From a virus (Duplodnaviria; Heunggongvirae; Uroviricota; Caudoviricetes), in IMG/VR virus record IMGVR_UViG_2541047938_000003, positions 1-42,938 of that record: a DNA stretch of 42,938 nt; one strand, written 5' to 3'. The position numbers and the translations under genes are program-made. How positions within the stretch are numbered: the stretch's first letter is position 1; each line of letters starts with the position of its first letter. Positions 1-22,223 of this stretch are shown here, one piece after another. The notes beneath the pieces are model-generated. The model saw only the letters and a program-made list of their open reading frames with translations, was not told where the DNA came from and did no database searches.

Positions 1-1194
1 ATGATCACCGACACAAAGCTCAGGAAGGCGCTCGGCAAGAAAAGAGATGATATCGAGATTATTTCTGATTCGCACGGGCTCAACGCCAGAATCAGCCAGG
101 CCGGAAAAATATCATTTTTCTATCGGTATCGCTGGGCCGGTAAAGCGGTAAAACTCAATGTTGGTGATTATCCTGCAATGAGTATCACCCAGGCAAGAGA
201 GCGTCGCCAACAATTCAGAAACTGGTTAACTGAGGGACTGGATCCGCGAGAGCAGGTGAAGCTGGATAAGCAGACCCGACAGGAAGCGATGTCCGTTGCC
301 GAAGCGTTCAATTACTGGATTGAAAGGCACTGTATCGCTAACGGGCTAGTTAAAGTCGATTACTATCGCCAGGTGTTTGAGAAACATATCGCCGAACCGA
401 TGAAGAATGTCAAAGTCGATAACACAGCGAAAATGCACTGGATCAACGTCTTCGATTCTATAGAAAGCAGGGTGATGGCTCATTACATGCTTTCGCTGTG
501 CAAACGGGCGTTTAGGTTCTGCGTTAACAGAAGTGTGATCGCCTCAAACCCACTCGAGGGATTACTGCCATCTGATGTCGGGCAAAAGCCTAAAAAGAGA
601 ACTCGCAGGATGGACGATGACGATCTGCGCAAAATCTATCAGTGGTTGAAAAGCCATATGTCGATAGAGTCCGTTTTCCTGGTGAAATTTATTATGCTTA
701 CCGGATGCCGTACGGCTGAGATTCGACTTAGTGAGAGATCATGGTTTCGATTGGATGATAATGAGTGGGTCGTGCCTGCGGGCAGTTATAAAACTCGGGT
801 ACATATTAGAAGGGGACTCTCAGACGCCGCCGTTAACCTGGTCAGAAATCACCTCAAGAAAATAAACACCAATCACCTGGTGACTTCACAACGTAAAATT
901 GATGGCGGGATCAAAGATTCGCCCGTTCATTCACCTGTGGCATCCAATTACGCCCGTTCTATTTGGAATGGAACAGGTATGGCAGAGTGGTCGCTTCATG
1001 ATATGAGGCGGACGATAGCCACAAATCTCTCTGAGTTAGGTTGCCCGCCGCACGTAATTGAAAAGCTGCTCGGGCATCAGATGGTGGGGGTTATGGCGCA
1101 TTACAACCTTCATGACTATATCGATGATCAGAAACACTGGCTCCGCGTTTGGCAGAGCCATCTTGAAGAGATCATCGGAGAGCCCTTCAGTTAA
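1..1194 (+). CDS. int: Tyrosine-type phage integrase (P4-like N-terminus), apparently complete
   Basis: ATG at nt 1; N-terminus [10 protein letters not shown]...[10 protein letters not shown] resembles P4-family arm-binding region; C-terminal HDMRRT...LLGHQ...HY catalytic region (R-H-R-Y). Family assignment from memory. Confidence 0.85.
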
Positions 1195-7577: not shown

Positions 7578-8255
7578 TTATGGGATGTTTAGTATTTTGG
7601 CATCAACCACAACGCCGATGATTTTGCAGTTTCCATTAATTTCTAGCATTGGATATGCGGGGTTAAGGGGCTTTAGGAAGCGTCTGCCGGCATCGATTAC
7701 AAGCTTCTTAAAGGTCGCTTCGTTATCGCCTTCTAGCTTCGCGACAACCAGCTTTCCGTTGCGCGGCTCGACTTCAGGATCAACAAGTATCGCTGCTCCC
7801 TCGGGTATGCTCAGTCCAGCCGGGGAGGTCATAGAATCCCCTTTAACGTCCAGCCAGAATGAATCTTCTGAGCAGTCAACAGTCGTGTCATACCAGCGAT
7901 CTATCGCTCTTCGGTGATAAGGTTCTACAGCTTCCATCCATTGCCCCGCGCTTACCCAGCTGATTACAGGATAACTTCCTTTTGTCTCGTTCAGTCCTCG
8001 AAATGCAACGTTCGAAGGTTCTTCACTGGCGTGTAAAACATCCATCCAGCCAAAAGGCAGATCAAGCGCAGTTTCAATTTTGCGAGCCATCTTATCGCCG
8101 ATATTGCGATGAGGGTTTGGTCCCAGTAGCTGACTAAGCGCAGCCGGACTTGTCTCGATGAGCTCGGCAAACTGCGCTTTGGTCATTCCAGACTCGTGCT
8201 GACGCTTCTCGTACAGCGCTTCCAGGTTGGCTTTTCTGATTTCTTTATTTTCCAT
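7578..8255 (-). CDS. cI: cI-like repressor (HTH plus S24 LexA-type autopeptidase domain)
   Basis: Start set at ATG 8255 (MENKEIRK...); HTH region QFAELIETSPAALSQL; S24 motifs GDSM and VVAKL; operator repeats on both sides. Confidence 0.85.
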   Translation of the reverse strand: MENKEIRKANLEALYEKRQHESGMTKAQFAELIETSPAALSQLLGPNPHRNIGDKMARKIETALDLPFGWMDVLHASEEPSNVAFRGLNETKGSYPVISWVSAGQWMEAVEPYHRRAIDRWYDTTVDCSEDSFWLDVKGDSMTSPAGLSIPEGAAILVDPEVEPRNGKLVVAKLEGDNEATFKKLVIDAGRRFLKPLNPAYPMLEINGNCKIIGVVVDAKILNIP

Positions 8256-8273
8256 ACCTGCATTGTTACTGCT

Positions 8274-8339
8274 TTTAGCAAAATGATAAATGTGCAAATT
8301 GCTAAATGATGCTTGCGTAGTATTTAGCATAACGCTAAA
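8274..8339. promoter_or_regulatory. OR-like operators and candidate rightward promoter
   Basis: 8274-8290 TTTAGCAAAATGATAAA; 8323-8339 TTTAGCATAACGCTAAA (perfect palindrome); candidate promoter TTGCGT (8313-8318) - 17 nt - TAAACT (8336-8341) overlapping the operator. Confidence 0.5.
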
Positions 8340-8371
8340 CTCCAAATCAAACGACTCACCCGGAGACACCA

Positions 8372-8605
8372 ATGAGCACTGAACTACACCGCTGGCGCAA
8401 GGCCGCCACTACCGACGAATGGGCGCAGCTCGCAAAGTTGGCTAACACGACGCCAGGTTACCTGGACCAGATCGCCTACGGAAATCGCCGGGCATCTCCA
8501 GAAATGGCATCTGCTATCGAGAAAGGCACGAAGAATTTTCACCGCCAGGCTCCGGTCCTAAAAGAAAGCCTGGTATTCGCATCGCCGCGTGATACTGCGG
8601 CCTAA
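8372..8605 (+). CDS. Cro/YdaS-like small HTH regulator
   Basis: 77 aa, divergent from the repressor; GGAG RBS; HTH-like WAQLAKLANTTPGYLDQIAYG. Confidence 0.6.
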   Translation: MSTELHRWRKAATTDEWAQLAKLANTTPGYLDQIAYGNRRASPEMASAIEKGTKNFHRQAPVLKESLVFASPRDTAA

Positions 8606-12060: not shown

Positions 12061-12518
12061 CAAACGTAAGTGCAGTAGAAAAAATGGCTGAATTAATGCA
12101 GCAGATGGAAGAGAACTCGCCCCGAGTTGCTGCTCTCCAGTATTGCCTGACACAGGTTGCGGAAAAAGTCGAAGAAGCAGAAAAGCGCAATGCGGAGCTT
12201 GAAGCCAGATGCGCTGCGCTGAGTGCGGAGAATTCGGGACTGAAGTCAGCGATTGACGCAACTATCGGATGGCAGCAATCAACCGATCCGGAGAATGTCG
12301 AAAGCGTTCGAATGCTGGTCGACGTTAAAACCCCGGTAACCGACGCTTTCCTGGCTGAAGTTCTGGCGCATGGGGTGGAGATGGCGGCTTGCGCTCTTGA
12401 TGACGTAAACCAGTTTAATTACGCAAACATGCTTGACGATTTAGCGCAGAAACTTCGCAAGGACTCCAACACCGCAGACCCGTTAGCCGCTGGCATCATC
12501 ACTGAGGTGGGGGATTAG
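12057..12518 (+). CDS. Hypothetical protein with coiled-coil segment
   Basis: ATG 12057 with G-rich RBS; 153 aa. Confidence 0.45.
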   Translation: MTNVSAVEKMAELMQQMEENSPRVAALQYCLTQVAEKVEEAEKRNAELEARCAALSAENSGLKSAIDATIGWQQSTDPENVESVRMLVDVKTPVTDAFLAEVLAHGVEMAACALDDVNQFNYANMLDDLAQKLRKDSNTADPLAAGIITEVGD

Positions 12519-12521
12519 GGT

Positions 12522-12749
12522 ATGGCTAAGTCACAAATGAAATTGGCTAATCGCGCATGGCGTACAGAAACAAAGGCTTTGGGCTGGCATGAAGGGCGTG
12601 GGATGAATCGCAAGCAATGGAAAACTTTCTGCCGGGAAAATGCCGCCACAACCGTAGAGTCGCAAAAATACAGCGATTGTCCTGTATTTGGCGATCAGCA
12701 AGAAGCCAGAGAAATCGTTGCCGAAGAACTTACCGAATGGACACTATAG
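12522..12749 (+). CDS. Hypothetical small protein
   Basis: 75-aa ORF in operon context. Confidence 0.4.
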   Translation: MAKSQMKLANRAWRTETKALGWHEGRGMNRKQWKTFCRENAATTVESQKYSDCPVFGDQQEAREIVAEELTEWTL

Positions 12750-12758
12750 GACTAACCC

Positions 12759-13430
12759 ATGACCAAACTAACCAAAGAACGCTTGGAAGAAATCGCAGAG
12801 CTTGCAAGAAAGGCGACGTACAAGCCATGTGCAATGCACATGACGAATTTATTGGTAGTATGCGATAGCGAAGTTATCGAGGAAATGGCCCGCCAGTTGC
12901 TTGCAAGCATGGAGCAGGAGCCTGTGTCGTACACCTGTAGTGACGCGTTAGATGATGTTTACTGTGGTAGCGCAGCCATGATGGGGCCCGCTGGCGCTGT
13001 GGGAGAAGTACCACTCTACGCAGCACCACAGTTACCGCAGCCAGCGGTGTTATCAGTGTCTGAGGGCGTGCTTAAAAGCCTCTTACCCGATGTTGAGAAG
13101 TCCGAGTTCTGGTTTGAGCATAATGGGAAAATCTTTTTTGAAGGTGTGAGGTTTAACAATGCGGTATTTGAAGCCTGCCGCGCCGCCATGCTTCAGGGTG
13201 CCGAACTTGTAAGTAATCGTGATGAGTTGCCGGATGGTTGGGTGGCTTGCAGTGAGCGGATGCCGGAGAAAGCTGATGAAGTTTTGTGTGCCAAAGAATT
13301 CGATGGTCCAGGTGATTGGCGCCAAAAGGTTGGTTATTACTTAGCGGGGAAATGGACGGTGTATAGCGCATCATGGACGCCGACCCACTGGATGCCACTG
13401 CCAGCAGCACCGCGGCAGGAGGTGAAGTGA
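12759..13430 (+). CDS. DUF551-like phage protein
   Basis: C-terminal WVACSERMPE...VLCA...GYYLAGKWTVYSASWTPTHWMPLP matches the remembered DUF551 pattern. Confidence 0.55.
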   Translation: MTKLTKERLEEIAELARKATYKPCAMHMTNLLVVCDSEVIEEMARQLLASMEQEPVSYTCSDALDDVYCGSAAMMGPAGAVGEVPLYAAPQLPQPAVLSVSEGVLKSLLPDVEKSEFWFEHNGKIFFEGVRFNNAVFEACRAAMLQGAELVSNRDELPDGWVACSERMPEKADEVLCAKEFDGPGDWRQKVGYYLAGKWTVYSASWTPTHWMPLPAAPRQEVK

Positions 13431-16915: not shown

Positions 16916-17605
16916 ATGAACAGTCAGCAACTGGAATACGTACGTCAGCAGCTCATTGTGGCGACCGCAGACCTCAGCGGGGCGACGAAAGGGCAGCTGG
17001 TCGCTTTCGCCGAGAACGCTCAATTCACCGCGACGGCGCGCAGCCGGGGGCGGAAGAAAGTCTATGACGCGCAGAAAAAGCGCATGGTTAACCCCGACGG
17101 CCCGCCGATGAGCGGCAGTCAGTCACGCGCCAAGGGCTCGTCAATCGCGCTGGTGAGTCCGGTAGAGTTCGGCACCGCATCATGGCGCCGCGCTGTCCTG
17201 TCTCTGGAAGACCATCAGAGAGCATGGTTGCTCTGGACCTACAGCGACAATATCTGCTGGGAGCTCCAGGAGACGATTGTCCGCTGGGCGTGGGAGCAAT
17301 TCAACCAACAATTTGCAGGTGTGCGCATTGCAAAGAAAACGGTAGATCGCCTGCGTCAGCTCATCTGGCTGGCGGCTCAGAATGAAAAAGCAGATATTTC
17401 AGGCAGGGAAGGCTGCTTACGTTATGCGCCAGCTTCTATGATCGGAATTAAACCCGATAACTGGAGCCATAACTATTCTGGCTACTGGCGGGCTATGGGG
17501 GAAATTTTCCAAGGATTGGACAGACAAGCTTTGCTGACGGTTTCTCGATCACGTTCACAACAAAAAACGACTTTTTCGCGGCATGGTATTGCAAAAGTCA
17601 ATTAA
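16916..17605 (+). CDS. Putative late-gene antiterminator (Q-like)
   Basis: 229 aa, last gene before terminator/tRNA/lysis region; family resemblance is memory-based and weak. Confidence 0.5.
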   Translation: MNSQQLEYVRQQLIVATADLSGATKGQLVAFAENAQFTATARSRGRKKVYDAQKKRMVNPDGPPMSGSQSRAKGSSIALVSPVEFGTASWRRAVLSLEDHQRAWLLWTYSDNICWELQETIVRWAWEQFNQQFAGVRIAKKTVDRLRQLIWLAAQNEKADISGREGCLRYAPASMIGIKPDNWSHNYSGYWRAMGEIFQGLDRQALLTVSRSRSQQKTTFSRHGIAKVN

Positions 17606-17671
17606 ATAGCATATATTTCATGTAAATCTGATATCGTCGCCATAGCTTCGTAGGTCGACAAAGAATTAAGA

Positions 17672-17696
17672 GCCTCGCCATCGTGCGGGGCTTTTT
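17672..17696 (+). terminator. Rho-independent terminator (candidate tR'-like)
   Basis: GCCTCGC-CATCGT-GCGGGGC stem (one G-U pair) followed by TTTTT. Confidence 0.55.
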
Positions 17697-17703
17697 CATT
17701 TCA

Positions 17704-17778
17704 GGGTCAGAAGCACAGCGGTTGTGCGTTCGGCTGTTAACCGAATGGTCGAAGGTTCGAATCCTTCCTGTCCCGCCA
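17704..17778 (+). tRNA. tRNA-Asn-like gene (anticodon GUU), phage-encoded
   Basis: Hand-folded cloverleaf: D-stem GCAC/GTGC, anticodon stem TTCGG/CCGAA with loop CTGTTAA, T-arm GAAGG-TTCGAAT-CCTTC, 3' GCCA; one U-U mismatch in acceptor stem. Confidence 0.55.
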
Positions 17779-17813
17779 AATTCGCCGGTCTAGTTCAGTG
17801 GCAGAGGTGGTAA

Positions 17814-18239
17814 ATGCCGAGCAAAGATTACTATCTTAATCGAAGGGCTAGGCTTGCTAAGGCCGTGGAAAAGTTGGGTGGTCGTTGCGCGAGTTGCGGA
17901 TCCGAATATTCGCTTCAGTTTGACCACATAGACCCTTCCACCAAATCAGCAAATGTAAGCGAGATGCACTATCACTCAGATTCGGTGTTTTATGCTGAGG
18001 TTGAAAAGTGCCAACTACTATGTTCTGCATGCCACATTCAGAAAACCAAATTTGACCTTAGCTACTTAGTAGCTGGTGAGCTGAATGGTATGAGCAAGCT
18101 AACAATGGACAGCGTCCAGTTCATCAGAGAAAACTACATTCCACGACATAAGGTTTATGGAGCCAGAGGGCTAGGGAGAATGTTTGGTGTAACACATCAA
18201 ACAGTGCTTTCAGCCTTAAATGGCGAAACCTGGAAATAA
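17814..18239 (+). CDS. HNH homing-type endonuclease
   Basis: CASCGSEYSLQFDHIDP ... CQLLCSACH matches the HNH zinc-finger nuclease pattern; AT-rich; flanked by tRNA-like sequence. Confidence 0.75.
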   Translation: MPSKDYYLNRRARLAKAVEKLGGRCASCGSEYSLQFDHIDPSTKSANVSEMHYHSDSVFYAEVEKCQLLCSACHIQKTKFDLSYLVAGELNGMSKLTMDSVQFIRENYIPRHKVYGARGLGRMFGVTHQTVLSALNGETWK

Positions 18240-18656
18240 GCTGCGCGTCAGAGGTTCGATTCCTTTGCCCGCTCCAGTAAAAGCTTTCCAGTCTGCGATG
18301 ATGGGTTCCCCGGAGTGACTGGAAAGCGACCTGGTTTTGAATGGGCGCTGCTTTTTGCAAAATTGCTGTGTGAAAATACTGACCTTTGGGTTCAGCGCTC
18401 ATCCAAAAGCATCACGTGAATTCACCAACGCTCATGTACTCTCCAGGAAACAATAAGTGATTCTGAAAAGTTCCGGTTAGATATTGCCCCGGTCACCGGA
18501 TGATTTTATCTTTTGGTTCGTGGTGAATCCCCCTATGCGGCGGGGCGTCCAGTCAAACTTTTTTGTCCAGGTTTGTTTGCGCGGAACTAGTCGGCTGGGG
18601 CTGTTCCACCGGGAGGCACCCGGCGCCACCTCCTTGACGGTATTGTTATTTTTCAT

Positions 18657-18683
18657 GCCTGTTCGTCCGAGCAGGCTTTTTTT
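18657..18683 (+). terminator. Candidate rho-independent terminator
   Basis: GCCTG-(10 nt loop)-CAGGC followed by seven T; short stem so moderate. Confidence 0.4.
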
Positions 18684-19092
18684 GCCCGCATTATCTTCAT
18701 TGAAAACTGGCAACTCAGAGAATCATCCAAATTAAAAAAGCAGCAACGAGAGCGATTACTAATACATTCTTCGCTTTTTCTCTTCTGCTGGCCTTCACAA
18801 AAGGATTCACTATCCGGCAGTGGCTACACACAAGTGATTCTGGGTTAATTAACTTTCCGCAGTAGGGGCAGGGCTTGATAATCATTGGTACTAATTAAGT
18901 TGTGAGAACGTAGTCTCATTTAACCACATTTATCGAGTTGTTTTACTAATGGTCTAGTTATTTCAGACATATTCATCAATTTCAGGCTCACGGGAATCAT
19001 CCGCTACGTGCTTTGTTGATAAATCCAGCCCGTGAAGCCTGACCCTTTTCAAACACACACACAGCGCCATCCGAAAAATCGGAGGTGAGGCT

Positions 19093-19371
19093 ATGACCAG
19101 AATGAGCACCATTTACAGCAGACTTTCATATGGAACAGGAACCACGCTGACCGGCTGCGGTGTATCAGCGAAGGCATATGCCGAAACAGCAAAAACAGCA
19201 AAAGAGGTGTCCTGGATGTTGGCCGACAGAATTGCAGGGTTAAGCCTGAGCGACTGGGCAATTATTGTCGGTATCGCATGCACTGTTATTACCTGTGCAG
19301 TGAACTGGTATTTCCGCTGGAAAGAACGGGAGGATCGTCGCAATGGCTATGCCACCAAAGCTGAAGAATAA
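19093..19371 (+). CDS. Holin, S21-like pinholin
   Basis: GGAGGTGAGG RBS; TM segment and C-terminus resembling phage 21 S (…YF..REDRR…); dual-start-like MTRMST. Confidence 0.7.
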   Translation: MTRMSTIYSRLSYGTGTTLTGCGVSAKAYAETAKTAKEVSWMLADRIAGLSLSDWAIIVGIACTVITCAVNWYFRWKEREDRRNGYATKAEE

Positions 19372-19891
19372 ACTAAGCGCAGCGGTCGTTGGTTTGATTC
19401 TTGCCGGGGCTTCCGCCCCCGTGATTCTCGATCAGTTTCTGGATGAGAAAGAGGGTAACAGCCTGACAGCATATCGCGACGGCGGCGGAATCTGGACAAT
19501 TTGCCGTGGCGCCACGATGGTTGATGGCAAACCAGTAGTTCAGGGCATGAAGCTGTCTGCTCAGAAATGTGTCCAGGTAAACGCCATCGAACGCGACAAG
19601 GCGCTGGCGTGGGTTGAGCGAAATATCAAGTTACCACTGACCGAACCACAGAAAGCGGGTATCGCTTCTTTCTGCCCATACAACATCGGCCCCGGAAAAT
19701 GCTTCCCGTCCACGTTCTATAAGCGAATTAACGCTGGAGACCGTAAAGGTGCCTGTGAAGCTATTCGCTGGTGGATCAAAGACGGTGGCCGCGATTGTCG
19801 TCTGACCAAAGGTCAGAAGAATGGCTGCTATGGGCAGGTAGAGCGACGAGATCAGGAAAGCGCGCTGACGTGCTGGGGGATAGACCAGTGA
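19343..19891 (+). CDS. SAR endolysin (T4-lysozyme-like with N-terminal signal-anchor-release domain)
   Basis: N-terminal hydrophobic [19 protein letters not shown]; lysozyme E-D-T region [20 protein letters not shown]; resembles phage 21 R. Confidence 0.85.
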
Positions 19892-20438: not shown

Positions 20439-20467
20439 TTGACTTTGTTGTCTTTAGGTTAAAATAT
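20439..20467 (+). promoter_or_regulatory. Candidate sigma70 promoter for the downstream moron
   Basis: TTGACT (20439-20444) then 15-17 nt then TAAAAT/AAATAT; spacing not ideal. Confidence 0.35.
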
Positions 20468-20480
20468 TAGTTCTCATAAA

Positions 20481-20948
20481 ATGGAGAATTTAATGTTTAA
20501 GCAATTCAGGCGCAATATTGCCTCTGCAAAGGTAAGAAAGTATATAGCTCACTGGATGGAAGTTATGTCGCTTACATTCAGAAATTCTATGGCAGGAAAT
20601 TATATTGACCAGAAGGATTTAGACAGAATTAGCCTTGTTATTATTAGCACTGCAATCACTGAGGCAAAAGTTTGTAGTGGCATAATCATGACATGTGTTG
20701 CTGATGTGGCGGCTAGAGCAGGCATGACCGAAGAGGATTTAAGTTATCTTCCGTATCAGGTGCTTGCCATAACGAAAGGGGTGGAAGGTCGTTCCCCGTT
20801 AGAGTCTAAGAAAGGTATGCTTGGGCTCATTTCACCTGGTTATGAGTTTTCTGATCAGGATGCGGGTTGGTTCGATACTAATATTGAAATCATAACTAAG
20901 CAGCTTAAAAATGATCTGCGAAGCGTAGTTAACAAGTTGCAAGATTGA
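20481..20948 (+). CDS. AT-rich accessory protein (moron), function unknown
   Basis: 155-aa ORF between lysis cassette and terminase, with its own upstream promoter-like sequence and a strong downstream terminator. Confidence 0.5.
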   Translation: MENLMFKQFRRNIASAKVRKYIAHWMEVMSLTFRNSMAGNYIDQKDLDRISLVIISTAITEAKVCSGIIMTCVADVAARAGMTEEDLSYLPYQVLAITKGVEGRSPLESKKGMLGLISPGYEFSDQDAGWFDTNIEIITKQLKNDLRSVVNKLQD

Positions 20949-21183
20949 TTATTTTCGCGTGATGATTTCATCACCACCTCCGGTTAGTTGCTATTAGTTT
21001 AGATTTTACAACAGGCATTCACCGAGTTCCTGTGATAATGTCGAAACTCATTAATCAGGTGCGCGAGTGTCGGGTAATACCGGTCCGGACGAAGCGTGAC
21101 GCTGCTATAAGTTGGAGGATGGTGCAGACGACCAATATCTTCTGGCTCAATGGTCCGAATCCATTCCTGATTACCACACCCAA

Positions 21184-21211
21184 GCCACTGGCATCCGCTG
21201 GTGGCTTTTTT
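21184..21211 (+). terminator. Rho-independent terminator immediately upstream of terminase small subunit gene
   Basis: GCCACTGG-CATCCG-CTGGTGGC 8-bp stem (two G-U) followed by TTTTTTATT. Confidence 0.6.
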
Positions 21212-21224
21212 ATTGGAGTAAGCA

Positions 21225-22223
21225 ATGGCAAAACCGGACTGGGGCGAGCTTCAGCAACGGTTCCTGTCCGAACATGCCAAAACCGGCATTTCCCCGAAAG
21301 ATTGGTGCGAAGAGCAGGGACTGAATTACACATCTGCGCGGCGCTATATCAAAAAGCCGACTGCGCAAAAAACTGCGCAGAAGAAAGTGCGCAATGCGCA
21401 GACTGAAAAAGCCCCAACAACTGTGCAGCGTGAGCAAACACCAATTGATGCGCATGCAGATGCGCAGGAAAGTGCGCAACCCTTCAACCTGCGCAATTAC
21501 GGGCTGAACGATATGCAGGTAAGGTTTGTTGAGGAATATCTAATCGACCTCAATCGTACCGCCGCTTATCGCCGCGCCGGTTATAAAGGGGAGGGCAACA
21601 CGGCTTACGTTAACGCCTCTCGATTGCTAAGGAATGCTAAGGTCAGCCAGGCAATCCGTGACGCGCTGGACGAACGCTCGCGAAGAGTGAAAGTAACCCA
21701 GGACGAAGTGTTGAAATGGTGGTGGGACATTGCGACGGCAGACGCCACGCAGCTGACTGAACACCACCGCGGCTGTTGCCGTTACTGCTGGGGGCTCGGT
21801 CATAACTACCAATGGCGCGACGCCGTCGAATTCAAGGAAGCCGAGGAAAAGGTTGCCGGGAAGGAAGGAGCCAAGCTACCGCAGGACACTGGCGGCTATG
21901 GTTACGACGGCACCGTAGACCCGAACCCGGATTGCCCGCGCTGCAATGGCGTCGGCATCGGTCGCTCTGTATTTCACGACACGCGTGATTTAACTGGTGC
22001 GGAGCGGCGATTATTCGCTGGGATTAAAGAGGGCAAATCTGGCCTTGAGGTCATCACCCGTAATCAGGATGAAGCAATGAAGATGGTGGCCCAACACCTC
22101 GGCATGCTGAAAACAAAAACCGAACTGAGCGGGCCGAATGGTGAGCCTATCCAGCACAGCCACTCTTTAAGTGCGGAGGATCTCACTGATGAGCAACTCG
22201 CCGCAATTATCGGCGGTAAGTAA
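21225..22223 (+). CDS. terS: Terminase small subunit (Terminase_2-like) with C-terminal Cys-rich region
   Basis: N-terminal HTH-like region; central block RTAAYRRAGYKG...AYVNASRLLRNAKV; CxxC...CxxC pairs near C-terminus; precedes large terminase. Confidence 0.7.
   Translation: MAKPDWGELQQRFLSEHAKTGISPKDWCEEQGLNYTSARRYIKKPTAQKTAQKKVRNAQTEKAPTTVQREQTPIDAHADAQESAQPFNLRNYGLNDMQVRFVEEYLIDLNRTAAYRRAGYKGEGNTAYVNASRLLRNAKVSQAIRDALDERSRRVKVTQDEVLKWWWDIATADATQLTEHHRGCCRYCWGLGHNYQWRDAVEFKEAEEKVAGKEGAKLPQDTGGYGYDGTVDPNPDCPRCNGVGIGRSVFHDTRDLTGAERRLFAGIKEGKSGLEVITRNQDEAMKMVAQHLGMLKTKTELSGPNGEPIQHSHSLSAEDLTDEQLAAIIGGK

Follow-up and report, generated by a model that had tools for sequence, protein, structure and literature searches.

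Morons of lambdoid phages, as defined for HK97 and HK022, are insertions that consist of a promoter, a gene and a terminator. Accessory genes of temperate phages are a main source of new functions in host–phage conflict, and RNA cargo in accessory slots is hardly catalogued because gene callers detect only open reading frames (ORFs). The locus described here lies at positions 20439–21213, between the lysis genes and the terminase small subunit gene (terS), of a 42,938-nucleotide (nt) stretch of DNA from a virus of the Caudoviricetes (IMG/VR record IMGVR_UViG_2541047938_000003, positions 1–42,938; hereafter the window), which represents a complete-looking lambdoid prophage of E. coli with myovirus-type late genes. 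A first-pass annotation had read the locus as a moron, that is, one self-contained promoter–gene–terminator unit. Two tandem units were found instead. The second, which is the one ended by the terminator, is an RNA gene that had been read as an untranslated region (UTR). We consider it likely that the locus comprises two adjacent accessory cassettes, an orphan protein gene designated hereafter as ORF151 followed by a stand-alone RNA gene, the product of which would act as a tRNA mimic. As a moron alone the finding would be ordinary; what stands out is the unannotated family of tRNA-like RNAs within it.

In common with lambdoid morons, the locus occupies a variable slot of the late region, contains an ORF of atypical composition, has promoter-like and terminator borders, and holds cargo that is exchanged between otherwise unrelated phages. 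It differs from them in having two stacked units, the second with an RNA gene, in the lack of a terminator belonging to the ORF in the window, and in borders formed by one particular conserved box and one particular conserved hairpin, which recur around different cargoes. The proposal that the region is accessory and horizontally shuffled, in a variable slot between lysis and terminase genes, was borne out. The genes in this slot differ between phages that have terS, or the ORF, in common; those sharing both terS and the RNA carry an ORF of 73, 201 or 59 amino acids (aa) in place of ORF151.

The RNA gene resembles canonical phage tRNA genes, such as the tRNA-Asn gene of the window, in its acceptor stem, discriminator and CCA, U8, D stem, G15/C48, T arm, short leader and terminator. 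It departs from a canonical tRNA in lacking an anticodon arm with U33, in a hairpin inserted into the D loop, and in an over-long arm with a conserved apex at the variable-arm position. Transfer-messenger RNA (tmRNA) is several hundred nt long and has no D stem, an element that the RNA described here does possess. The RNA shares with the tRNA-like domain of tmRNA an acceptor/T-arm module with CCA, the absence of an anticodon and a long helix at the variable-arm position, and the Rfam tmRNA model matched 18 nt of the T arm and acceptor in the homologue from Cedecea (16 bits against a gathering score of 47). Identity with tmRNA was rejected, as the RNA has U3-A70 rather than G3-U70, no tag frame and no pseudoknots, and measures 124 nt compared with the 374 positions of the Rfam model. 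Small, stable phage RNAs with tRNA-like acceptor features include RNase P-processed regulatory RNAs of temperate phages (C4 of P1 and P7, CI of P4), as well as the stable tRNA-like 'species 1/2' of T4, and are taken here as a lead only. The present RNA differs in that it matches no Rfam family, C4 included, has no extended complementary target for its conserved loops in the prophage and is located in the late rather than the immunity region. Membership in the Y RNA-like and C4 families was also rejected, no Rfam family reaching its gathering threshold.

Structure and conservation of the tRNA-like RNA

The RNA gene and its helices are listed in Table 1. Elements of a canonical tRNA that are present include a 7-bp acceptor stem, a 5-bp T stem with a UUCGAAU loop in the family, a 4-bp D stem and the conserved U8, A14, G15 and C48; U8 and G9 follow the acceptor stem and A26 follows the D arm. 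Where a canonical tRNA has an anticodon arm of 5 bp with a 7-nt loop and U33, the family has a 3-bp stem with a loop of 5–6 nt, and in the long hairpin the second base of the 7-nt loop is C, not U. With no 7-nt loop carrying U33 in the right place, the RNA cannot decode. The apex of the long hairpin (GGUGC..CCAAUA) is conserved in sequence, the length of the outer stem ranging from 5 to 11 bp across the family. The D-loop insert has GNRA or UUUU loops in some clades and is missing in one variant (L020), which has an ordinary 12-nt D loop.

Comparative support was obtained from 41 distinct variants, which were collected by pattern scans of IMG/VR and of species-representative genomes with subsequent filtering and were aligned using MAFFT without structural input. 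Matches from a first 15-mer scan of viral contigs were mostly due to chance and were filtered by their 3′ half. Among the matches listed in the scan of species-representative genomes (GGTGCGCGAG..GGTTCGAATCC), most were likewise chance, beside ordinary tRNAs in high-GC genomes, and the real ones came from Erwinia, Serratia and a few others; the variants include prophages of Erwinia rhapontici and Serratia sp. L9. The architecture is kept in about six sequence clades, found in prophages of E. coli, Cedecea, Serratia and Erwinia and in viral contigs.

Standard pairs accounted for 95.5% of 1187 alignment cells in the proposed fold, compared with 31.7–44.5% when the 3′ partners were slid by 1–3 columns, and double changes occurred in 16 of 29 pairs. 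The covariation score was 0.434, against at most 0.116 for the slid controls, and was reached by none of 500 shuffles. Several of the covarying helices had never been used for sequence selection: the T stem (99% of cells paired, double changes in three of five pairs), the long hairpin (double changes in four of the five outer pairs), the mini-hairpin (all three pairs covarying between clades) and the pair closing the D-loop insert (columns 21 and 40; GC in 19 sequences, CG in 14 and UG in 5). In the prophage of Cedecea neteri, the RNA of which is 75% identical, the T stem reads GUGGG/CCCAC, which amounts to three compensatory pairs. The acceptor stem covaries as well, as in the Serratia type (AGUUGGG/CCCAGCU), but since sequences had been pre-filtered on acceptor pairing the support for this helix is in part due to construction. 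G-U pairs, including G11-U in 40 of the 41 variants, make the fold specific to the plus strand, an observation that speaks against cos, pac or another DNA site.

A covariance model of the family (R1) scored the window copy at 121.8 bits (E 7e-34) and also recognised real tRNAs, with 27 bits for the tRNA-Asn of the window and 18.8 bits for a class II tRNA-Ser. In the latter, the variable arm was aligned to the long hairpin and the anticodon region to the mini-hairpin, from which it follows that the RNA has the topology of a class II tRNA whose anticodon arm is stunted. Judged by these alignments, the product is a conserved, structured, tRNA-shaped RNA without an anticodon.

Several observations weigh against this reading or limit it. 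Variants were retrieved by exact patterns in the D-stem and T-loop regions and passed an acceptor filter, hence invariance in those parts is partly by construction. As the variants fall into about six clades, there were fewer independent events than the counts of covarying cells suggest. The mini-hairpin, the least certain helix, is paired in just 85% of cells, and in the E. coli type its 3′ strand could extend the long hairpin instead. Some clades encode ACCU, ACUA or no CCA; where a phage tRNA gene does not encode CCA, maturation relies on RNase BN and the CCA-adding enzyme. The window copy is alone among the 41 variants in lacking A16 (21066–21068) and in carrying U55C (UCCGAAU, 21154–21160). 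Both changes are located in the elbow, and the window copy scores 14 bits below that of phage mEp390. This particular copy could be impaired, and its elbow changes could be compensating or could be first signs of decay.

The RNA had escaped annotation. Within the window ARAGORN reported the tRNA-Asn only, and it found nothing in the homologous loci and no tmRNA. No match to the Rfam 15 tRNA model was obtained even at E = 10, and the best overlapping Rfam matches scored 17 bits or less against gathering scores of 39–75. The RNA is absent from GenBank and RefSeq annotations, and no description was found in the literature searched by keyword and by raw sequence string, a search that left most subscription journals outside, so that this absence is not proof. 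It is also rare, being present in 2 of 5426 complete E. coli genomes and, among deposited phages, in mEp390 alone.

The failure of ARAGORN and Rfam to see the RNA, together with its missing anticodon arm, could mean that it is a decaying phage tRNA gene or the remnant of an attachment site with no present function, and the two unique changes of the window copy at otherwise invariant positions and the variants without CCA would fit that account. Decay is at odds with a single non-canonical architecture recurring in about six clades, with compensatory changes in the non-canonical helices too, and with the invariance of C48 and of the positions that make D-loop/T-loop tertiary contacts. As to an attachment-site remnant, an attP copy holds only the 3′ part of a tRNA gene, whereas both acceptor strands are present here, about 20 kb away from the integrase gene. 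Absence of function is, on balance, the least probable explanation of the RNA that we considered.

Table 1. Positions of the features discussed, numbered from the first letter of the window.
Feature	Position	Strand	Details
Integrase gene	1–1194		
CI-like repressor gene	7578–8372	−	
Q antiterminator gene	16916–17605		Intact by Pfam
tRNA-Asn (GTT) gene	17704–17778	+	Found by ARAGORN
Sigma-70-like promoter candidate of ORF151	20439–20468	+	TTGACT (20439–20444), 18 nt, AATATT (20463–20468)
Shine-Dalgarno sequence GGAG	20483–20486	+	6 nt 5′ of ATG 20493; homologues keep ATGGAG/ATGGGG
ORF151, orphan protein gene	20493–20948	+	151 aa; alternative upstream ATG at 20481 gives 155 aa
Conserved 35-bp box	21006–21040	+	Imperfect inverted repeat CAGGCA-N9-TTCCTG, then extended −10 TGTGATAAT (21031–21039)
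tRNA-like RNA gene	21053–21176	+	124 nt including encoded A73-CCA (121 nt before CCA)
Acceptor stem	21053–21059 with 21166–21172	+	AAUCAGG/CCUGAUU, 7 bp; A73 = 21173, CCA = 21174–21176
D arm	21062–21098	+	Stem CGCG (21062–21065)/CGUG (21095–21098); enlarged loop 21066–21094 with A14, G15 and inserted hairpin
Mini-hairpin in the anticodon-arm position	21101–21112	+	GCU-GCUAUA-AGU, 3 bp, 6-nt loop; least certain helix
Long bulged hairpin in the variable-arm position	21116–21141	+	5 bp, AAU bulge, 3 bp, 7-nt loop (21124–21130)
Invariant C in the C48 position (21148), then T arm	21148–21165	+	AAUGG-UCCGAAU-CCAUU
Intrinsic terminator	21182–21213	+	Stem 21182–21207 (11 pairs, 6 G-C), T-run to 21211
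terS (Pfam Terminase_2)	21225–22223		332 aa; ribosome-binding site (RBS) GGAG 21215–21218 within terminator tail

Box, terminator and neighbours of the RNA gene

Upstream of the RNA gene lies a 35-bp box with the consensus CATTACAGCAGGCATTCACTGAGTGCCTGTGATAATG, which contains the inverted repeat CAGGCA-N9-TGCCTG and is more than 90% identical across unrelated enterobacterial phages. It was found in phi80 (after rha), ZF40, mEp390, many Klebsiella phages and 187 complete E. coli genomes, and occurs once in the window against an expectation of 0. Copies were located at 2501–2535 of L010 (phi80), 3001–3037 of L011, 2501–2535 of L012 and 4520–4548 of L287. The box is presumed to be the promoter of the RNA gene and a joint of the cassette. 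RNA variants without the box have −10-like elements 8–13 nt before position 1, which favours separate transcription of the RNA, with a short leader such as RNase P removes. Against a promoter stand the lack of a −35 element and the near absence of cargo after the box in phi80 and L287, where nothing but a hairpin and a convergent gene follows, and the box may be something other than, or more than, a promoter. Its inverted repeat drifts without compensation, which fits an operator better than an RNA hairpin.

The hairpin of the terminator (AAGCCACTGGCATCCGCTGGTGGCTTTTTTATTGGAG) is, like the box, far more widespread than the RNA. Between box and terminator different cargo was found: in E. coli XJ55 it is an ORF of 128 aa, in Klebsiella phage KPP5665-2 one of 68 aa, and phi80 has almost nothing there. 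The genes that precede the box differ as well. When the region was compared with 50,697 phage records by megablast, the only match covered 21006–21213 in mEp390 (92.8% identity), where this stretch is annotated as non-coding and ORF151 is missing. The strong intrinsic terminator that the first-pass annotation had placed just before terS is present, with hairpin and T-run, but it is not the moron's own, since it ends the second unit and transcripts of the ORF only secondarily. Taken together, the sequence comparisons indicate that the 230 nt between the stop codon of ORF151 and the terminator are a second unit rather than a UTR, and that cargo is exchanged in modular fashion at conserved box and terminator joints.

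The competing view, by which the locus is a single moron with a long 3′ UTR that serves lysogenic conversion and has no function of its own in 20949–21181, can draw on the presence of a promoter-like site, an ORF and a terminator, on the atypical GC content of the ORF, and on the terminator scan, which detected no terminator-like site between the stop codon of ORF151 (20948) and 21182; transcripts starting at 20439 would end at 21211. What makes this view very unlikely is that the supposed UTR is conserved without ORF151, at 92.8% identity in mEp390 and as 41 variants in unrelated contexts, that it has a covariation-supported tRNA-like fold and its own conserved box upstream, and that close homologues of ORF151 are followed by other cargo after the box, the distant ones having terminators of their own.

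Across 52 non-redundant RNA loci the ORFs upstream of the RNA fell into 31 clusters, including Rha-like regulators and many small orphans. Downstream, the most frequent neighbour was the same type of terS, of 330 aa (12 of 46 contexts), the others being an HNH endonuclease gene or a small ORF. These neighbours place the RNA in an accessory slot just before the packaging genes.

The same position could suit a module acting mainly in cis, at which the late or ORF151 transcript would be cut. The mRNA for lysis and accessory genes would in this way be parted from that for packaging and head genes, each with a stability determined by the cut, and the RNA released would be a by-product. tRNA-like structures serve as processing signals elsewhere, for example in MALAT1/mascRNA and in bacterial tRNA–mRNA co-transcripts. 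Consistent with such a role, what is conserved is what RNase P and 3′-end enzymes recognise (acceptor stem, T arm and elbow), the RNA is separated from terS by 48 nt in 12 of 46 contexts or immediately precedes HNH genes, the next RBS is in the terminator tail, and ORF151 of the window lacks its own terminator. For processing in cis, however, neither a conserved apex nor a D-loop insert would be needed, nor would a CCA in the gene or a promoter and terminator dedicated to it, and the RNA is found before unrelated small ORFs too. We judge a mainly cis-acting function to be unlikely. For the RNA we rank a mimic or decoy acting in trans first, a processing signal in cis second and a decaying pseudogene last.

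Two further candidates were discarded. An antisense role inside the prophage was not supported, as two conserved segments of the RNA had no target with at least 15 of 18 matches within the 43 kb, although short seed pairing may occur; and a complementarity of CCAAUA to the RBS region of terS extends over 6 nt, which is at chance level.

The orphan gene ORF151

The first cassette had been described as an AT-rich ORF of 155 aa at 20481–20948 on the plus strand. The ORF itself and its composition were confirmed, GC content ranging from 0.36 to 0.44 across it compared with 0.52–0.58 in the flanks. The start was moved to ATG 20493 as the most likely one, because RefSeq/PGAP and all homologues begin at MFK and GGAG is found 6 nt upstream. 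Overall GC content of ORF151 is 0.41 (0.39 at third codon positions), atypical beside the 0.54–0.55 of the lysozyme, spanin, terS and terminase large subunit (terL) genes. Differences between close homologues are biased towards third codon positions (61 of 92 and 47 of 76), and by this measure ORF151 is a real protein-coding gene.

With regard to the promoter that had been proposed (TTGACT...TAAAAT), a sigma-70-like site is present upstream of the ORF, but pairing with TAAAAT (20460–20465) would leave a spacer of merely 15 nt. With AATATT as the −10 element the spacer is 18 nt in the window and 17 nt in the homologues from Cedecea and L291, in which the −35-like and TAAAATATT blocks are kept. 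TTGACT-18-AATATT is plausible as the promoter of ORF151. It matches only 9 of 12 consensus positions, a quality reached by 6 sites in the 4 kb scanned compared with 3.8 ± 1.9 in shuffled sequences; such a quality is at chance level in AT-rich DNA, which makes the site no more than a candidate.

A word-indexed search of 5.8 billion clusters returned four relatives of ORF151 with 65–99% identity, and an exhaustive profile search of 1.84 billion representatives returned seven, four of them full-length at about 29–38% identity; homologues down to 29% identity keep the same length. None of the family members matched a family of Pfam, PHROGs, PADLOC or NCBIfam. An AlphaFold2 model built from eight sequences (pLDDT 93.3, pTM 0.89; predicted local-distance and template-modelling confidence, respectively), which took the place of a first model from five sequences with a pLDDT of 76, contains eight helices and suggests that the product is a soluble all-helical protein.

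The earlier statement that the product has no recognisable motif therefore holds at the sequence level, and in structure it has to be qualified by one outlying fold match of the high-confidence model. This sole match was the Cbp3/ubiquinol-cytochrome c chaperone domain, represented by a Brucella homologue (PDB 6rwt_A) to which ORF151 is 8% identical and whose respiratory-chain context is lacking here. None of the eight family members gave a match to the corresponding Pfam profile (PF03981, Ubiq_cyt_C_chap), or to any other, even at E = 1. Foldseek searches were empty against PDB with the first, lower-confidence model and against BFVD with the high-confidence one. A Cbp3-like fold of ORF151 is, on the basis of the model, a lead only. 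An apparent similarity to TAL effectors (phmmer against PDB, E 6e-6) was identified as an artefact, being the sum of about 15 hits of at most 4 bits in which one 30-residue stretch was matched to each repeat; it faded with the family profile, had no support in fold searches, and the motif is not conserved across the family.

Genes of the ORF151 family are located 3′ of a lysis cassette in every readable context. In the window, in Cedecea and in L288 and L006 the gene directly follows the spanin gene or its remnant, and in L296 one small ORF lies between. The homologue in L288, in a decayed prophage beside purB, starts 41 nt past the Rz stop codon with no promoter evident and has its own terminator, as do those in L006 and L157. 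Two diverged tandem paralogues (P0004 and P0006) are present at 8001–9249 of L006 (identical to 3232–4480 of L292), in a prophage remnant of a JGI isolate genome, between tRNA-Ser/yccA and a transposase gene; no other phage late genes remain there.

In view of the start in L288 and of the spanin-adjacent position in all contexts, a late role linked to lysis is as compatible with the sequence data as expression in the lysogen, and the two are equally compatible readings of ORF151. In a more specific form, the protein would be a late accessory of the lysis cassette that, for instance, regulates or chaperones a lysis membrane protein from the cytoplasm; it would not be a lysogen conversion factor. 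The position next to the spanin gene is kept although the lysis cassettes differ, L288 fits as described, and Cbp3, the only fold match, is a chaperone of a newly made membrane protein. On the other hand, nearly all phages that have lysis genes of these kinds lack ORF151, and it occurs in only 2 of 5426 complete E. coli genomes, so it is not needed for lysis, and its persistence in decayed prophages without late genes (L288; L006/L292) fits a benefit to the host. We regard this form of the proposal as doubtful, though as the most credible of the alternatives weighed here.

The RNA follows a gene of the ORF151 family in three allele combinations: that of the window; that of Cedecea, with 81% aa identity and a different RNA subtype; and that of L157, where a homologue of 29% identity ends in its own copy of the cassette terminator and is followed by box, an E. 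coli-type RNA and terminator. As both genes are very rare, this repeated adjacency could indicate a functional protein–RNA pair in the manner of SmpB–tmRNA or Ro–Y RNA. Most RNA loci have other genes upstream, however, with 31 clusters counted among 49, and five contexts of the ORF151 family are without the RNA (L291, L287, L288, L295/L296 and L006/L292); in L291 the homologue is followed by the box and a 75-aa ORF, and in L287 (96% aa identity to ORF151) by the box, a phi80-like hairpin and a convergent gene. Common joints (box and terminator) in the same slot already favour adjacency. A functional pair is distinctly unlikely in our view, and the simplest reading of these arrangements is that the ORF151 and RNA cassettes are separate units shuffled at shared joints.

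Proposed expression and roles, and the prophage setting

In the mechanism that we favour, with two separate accessory cassettes, ORF151 would be transcribed with the late operon, which its position directly after the spanin gene allows, and perhaps also from its own weak sigma-70-type promoter in the lysogen. As it has no terminator of its own in the window, its transcripts would run into the second cassette and end at 21211. Transcription of the RNA gene would start from the extended −10 element about 6–7 nt before 21053 and stop at the terminator (21182–21211), after which RNase P would trim the transcript at 21053 and tRNA 3′-end enzymes at CCA, leading to accumulation of a stable, non-decoding RNA. 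The RNA keeps the elements that are read by RNase P, by 3′-trimming and CCA enzymes and by factors recognising tRNA shape, namely the acceptor stem, A73-CCA, U8, D stem, G15/C48 and T arm. It would most likely be a tRNA mimic, bound by a host or defence factor that recognises tRNAs or by a factor of the phage. The conserved long-arm apex, together with the insert in the D loop, suggests that the partner is a specific one, and an acceptor/elbow module left intact suggests one whose usual task is to read the shape of tRNA. The ORF151 protein would be a separate accessory factor. Promoter activity, RNA processing and both functions are inferred.

A bolder version takes the RNA as the founder of a new class of anticodon-less phage tRNA mimics that are matured by the tRNA machinery, may be aminoacylated (A73, class II-like body) and act in trans, either as decoys of a defence toxin or nuclease directed at the acceptor end or by engaging the ribosome, perhaps as a ribonucleoprotein with the Cbp3-like ORF151. 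We hold this version to be rather unlikely as a whole.

Whatever its partner, a stretch that looks like a UTR hides a conserved tRNA-shaped RNA which standard tRNA finders, Rfam and public annotations have overlooked. If expressed, it would offer a small system, amenable to genetics, in which tRNA mimicry by E. coli phages could be studied, and a handle on the tRNA-reading enzyme, defence system or ribosomal step targeted by the prophage. The box and terminator joints reveal swapping of protein and RNA cassettes between unrelated enterobacterial phages and could be used by annotation pipelines.

An identical copy of the locus, with 831 bases around it at 100% identity, is present in two RefSeq E. 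coli chromosomes, which are the only ones among the 5426 complete E. coli genomes. In one of these, NZ_CP190333 (L001), internal stops are annotated in the replication gene and the Q gene (12275–13183 and 17029–17838), so that in this strain both cassettes would be expressible from promoters only. The early region of NZ_CP190333 is unlike that of the window.

According to Pfam, the lysis genes upstream of ORF151 encode a P21/HP1-type holin, an endolysin of the Phage_lysozyme family and a DUF2514 spanin. The cassette (19093–19891) resembles a pair of pinholin and signal-anchor-release (SAR) endolysin, the holin matching the P21 S and HP1 families and the lysozyme having an N-terminal hydrophobic stretch. 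On the other side of the locus, the product of terS is long for its kind, with the Terminase_2 domain beginning at residue 94 and with CxxC...CPRC motifs. The tRNA-Asn (GTT) gene lies about 100 nt 3′ of the Q gene, an arrangement as in phages L and Sf6; next comes an ORF of 141 aa in which a weak HNH motif was noted (17814–18239, plus strand). Just 5′ of the holin gene, on the minus strand, a 56-aa zinc-ribbon ORF (DUF2116/Zn_ribbon_3, 18715–18885) has a C-terminal hydrophobic segment. The small RNA STnc100 was matched by Rfam at 18495–18687 on the plus strand (71.7 bits, gathering score 47, E 2e-14), in the part of the late-operon leader that separates the HNH-like ORF from the holin gene.

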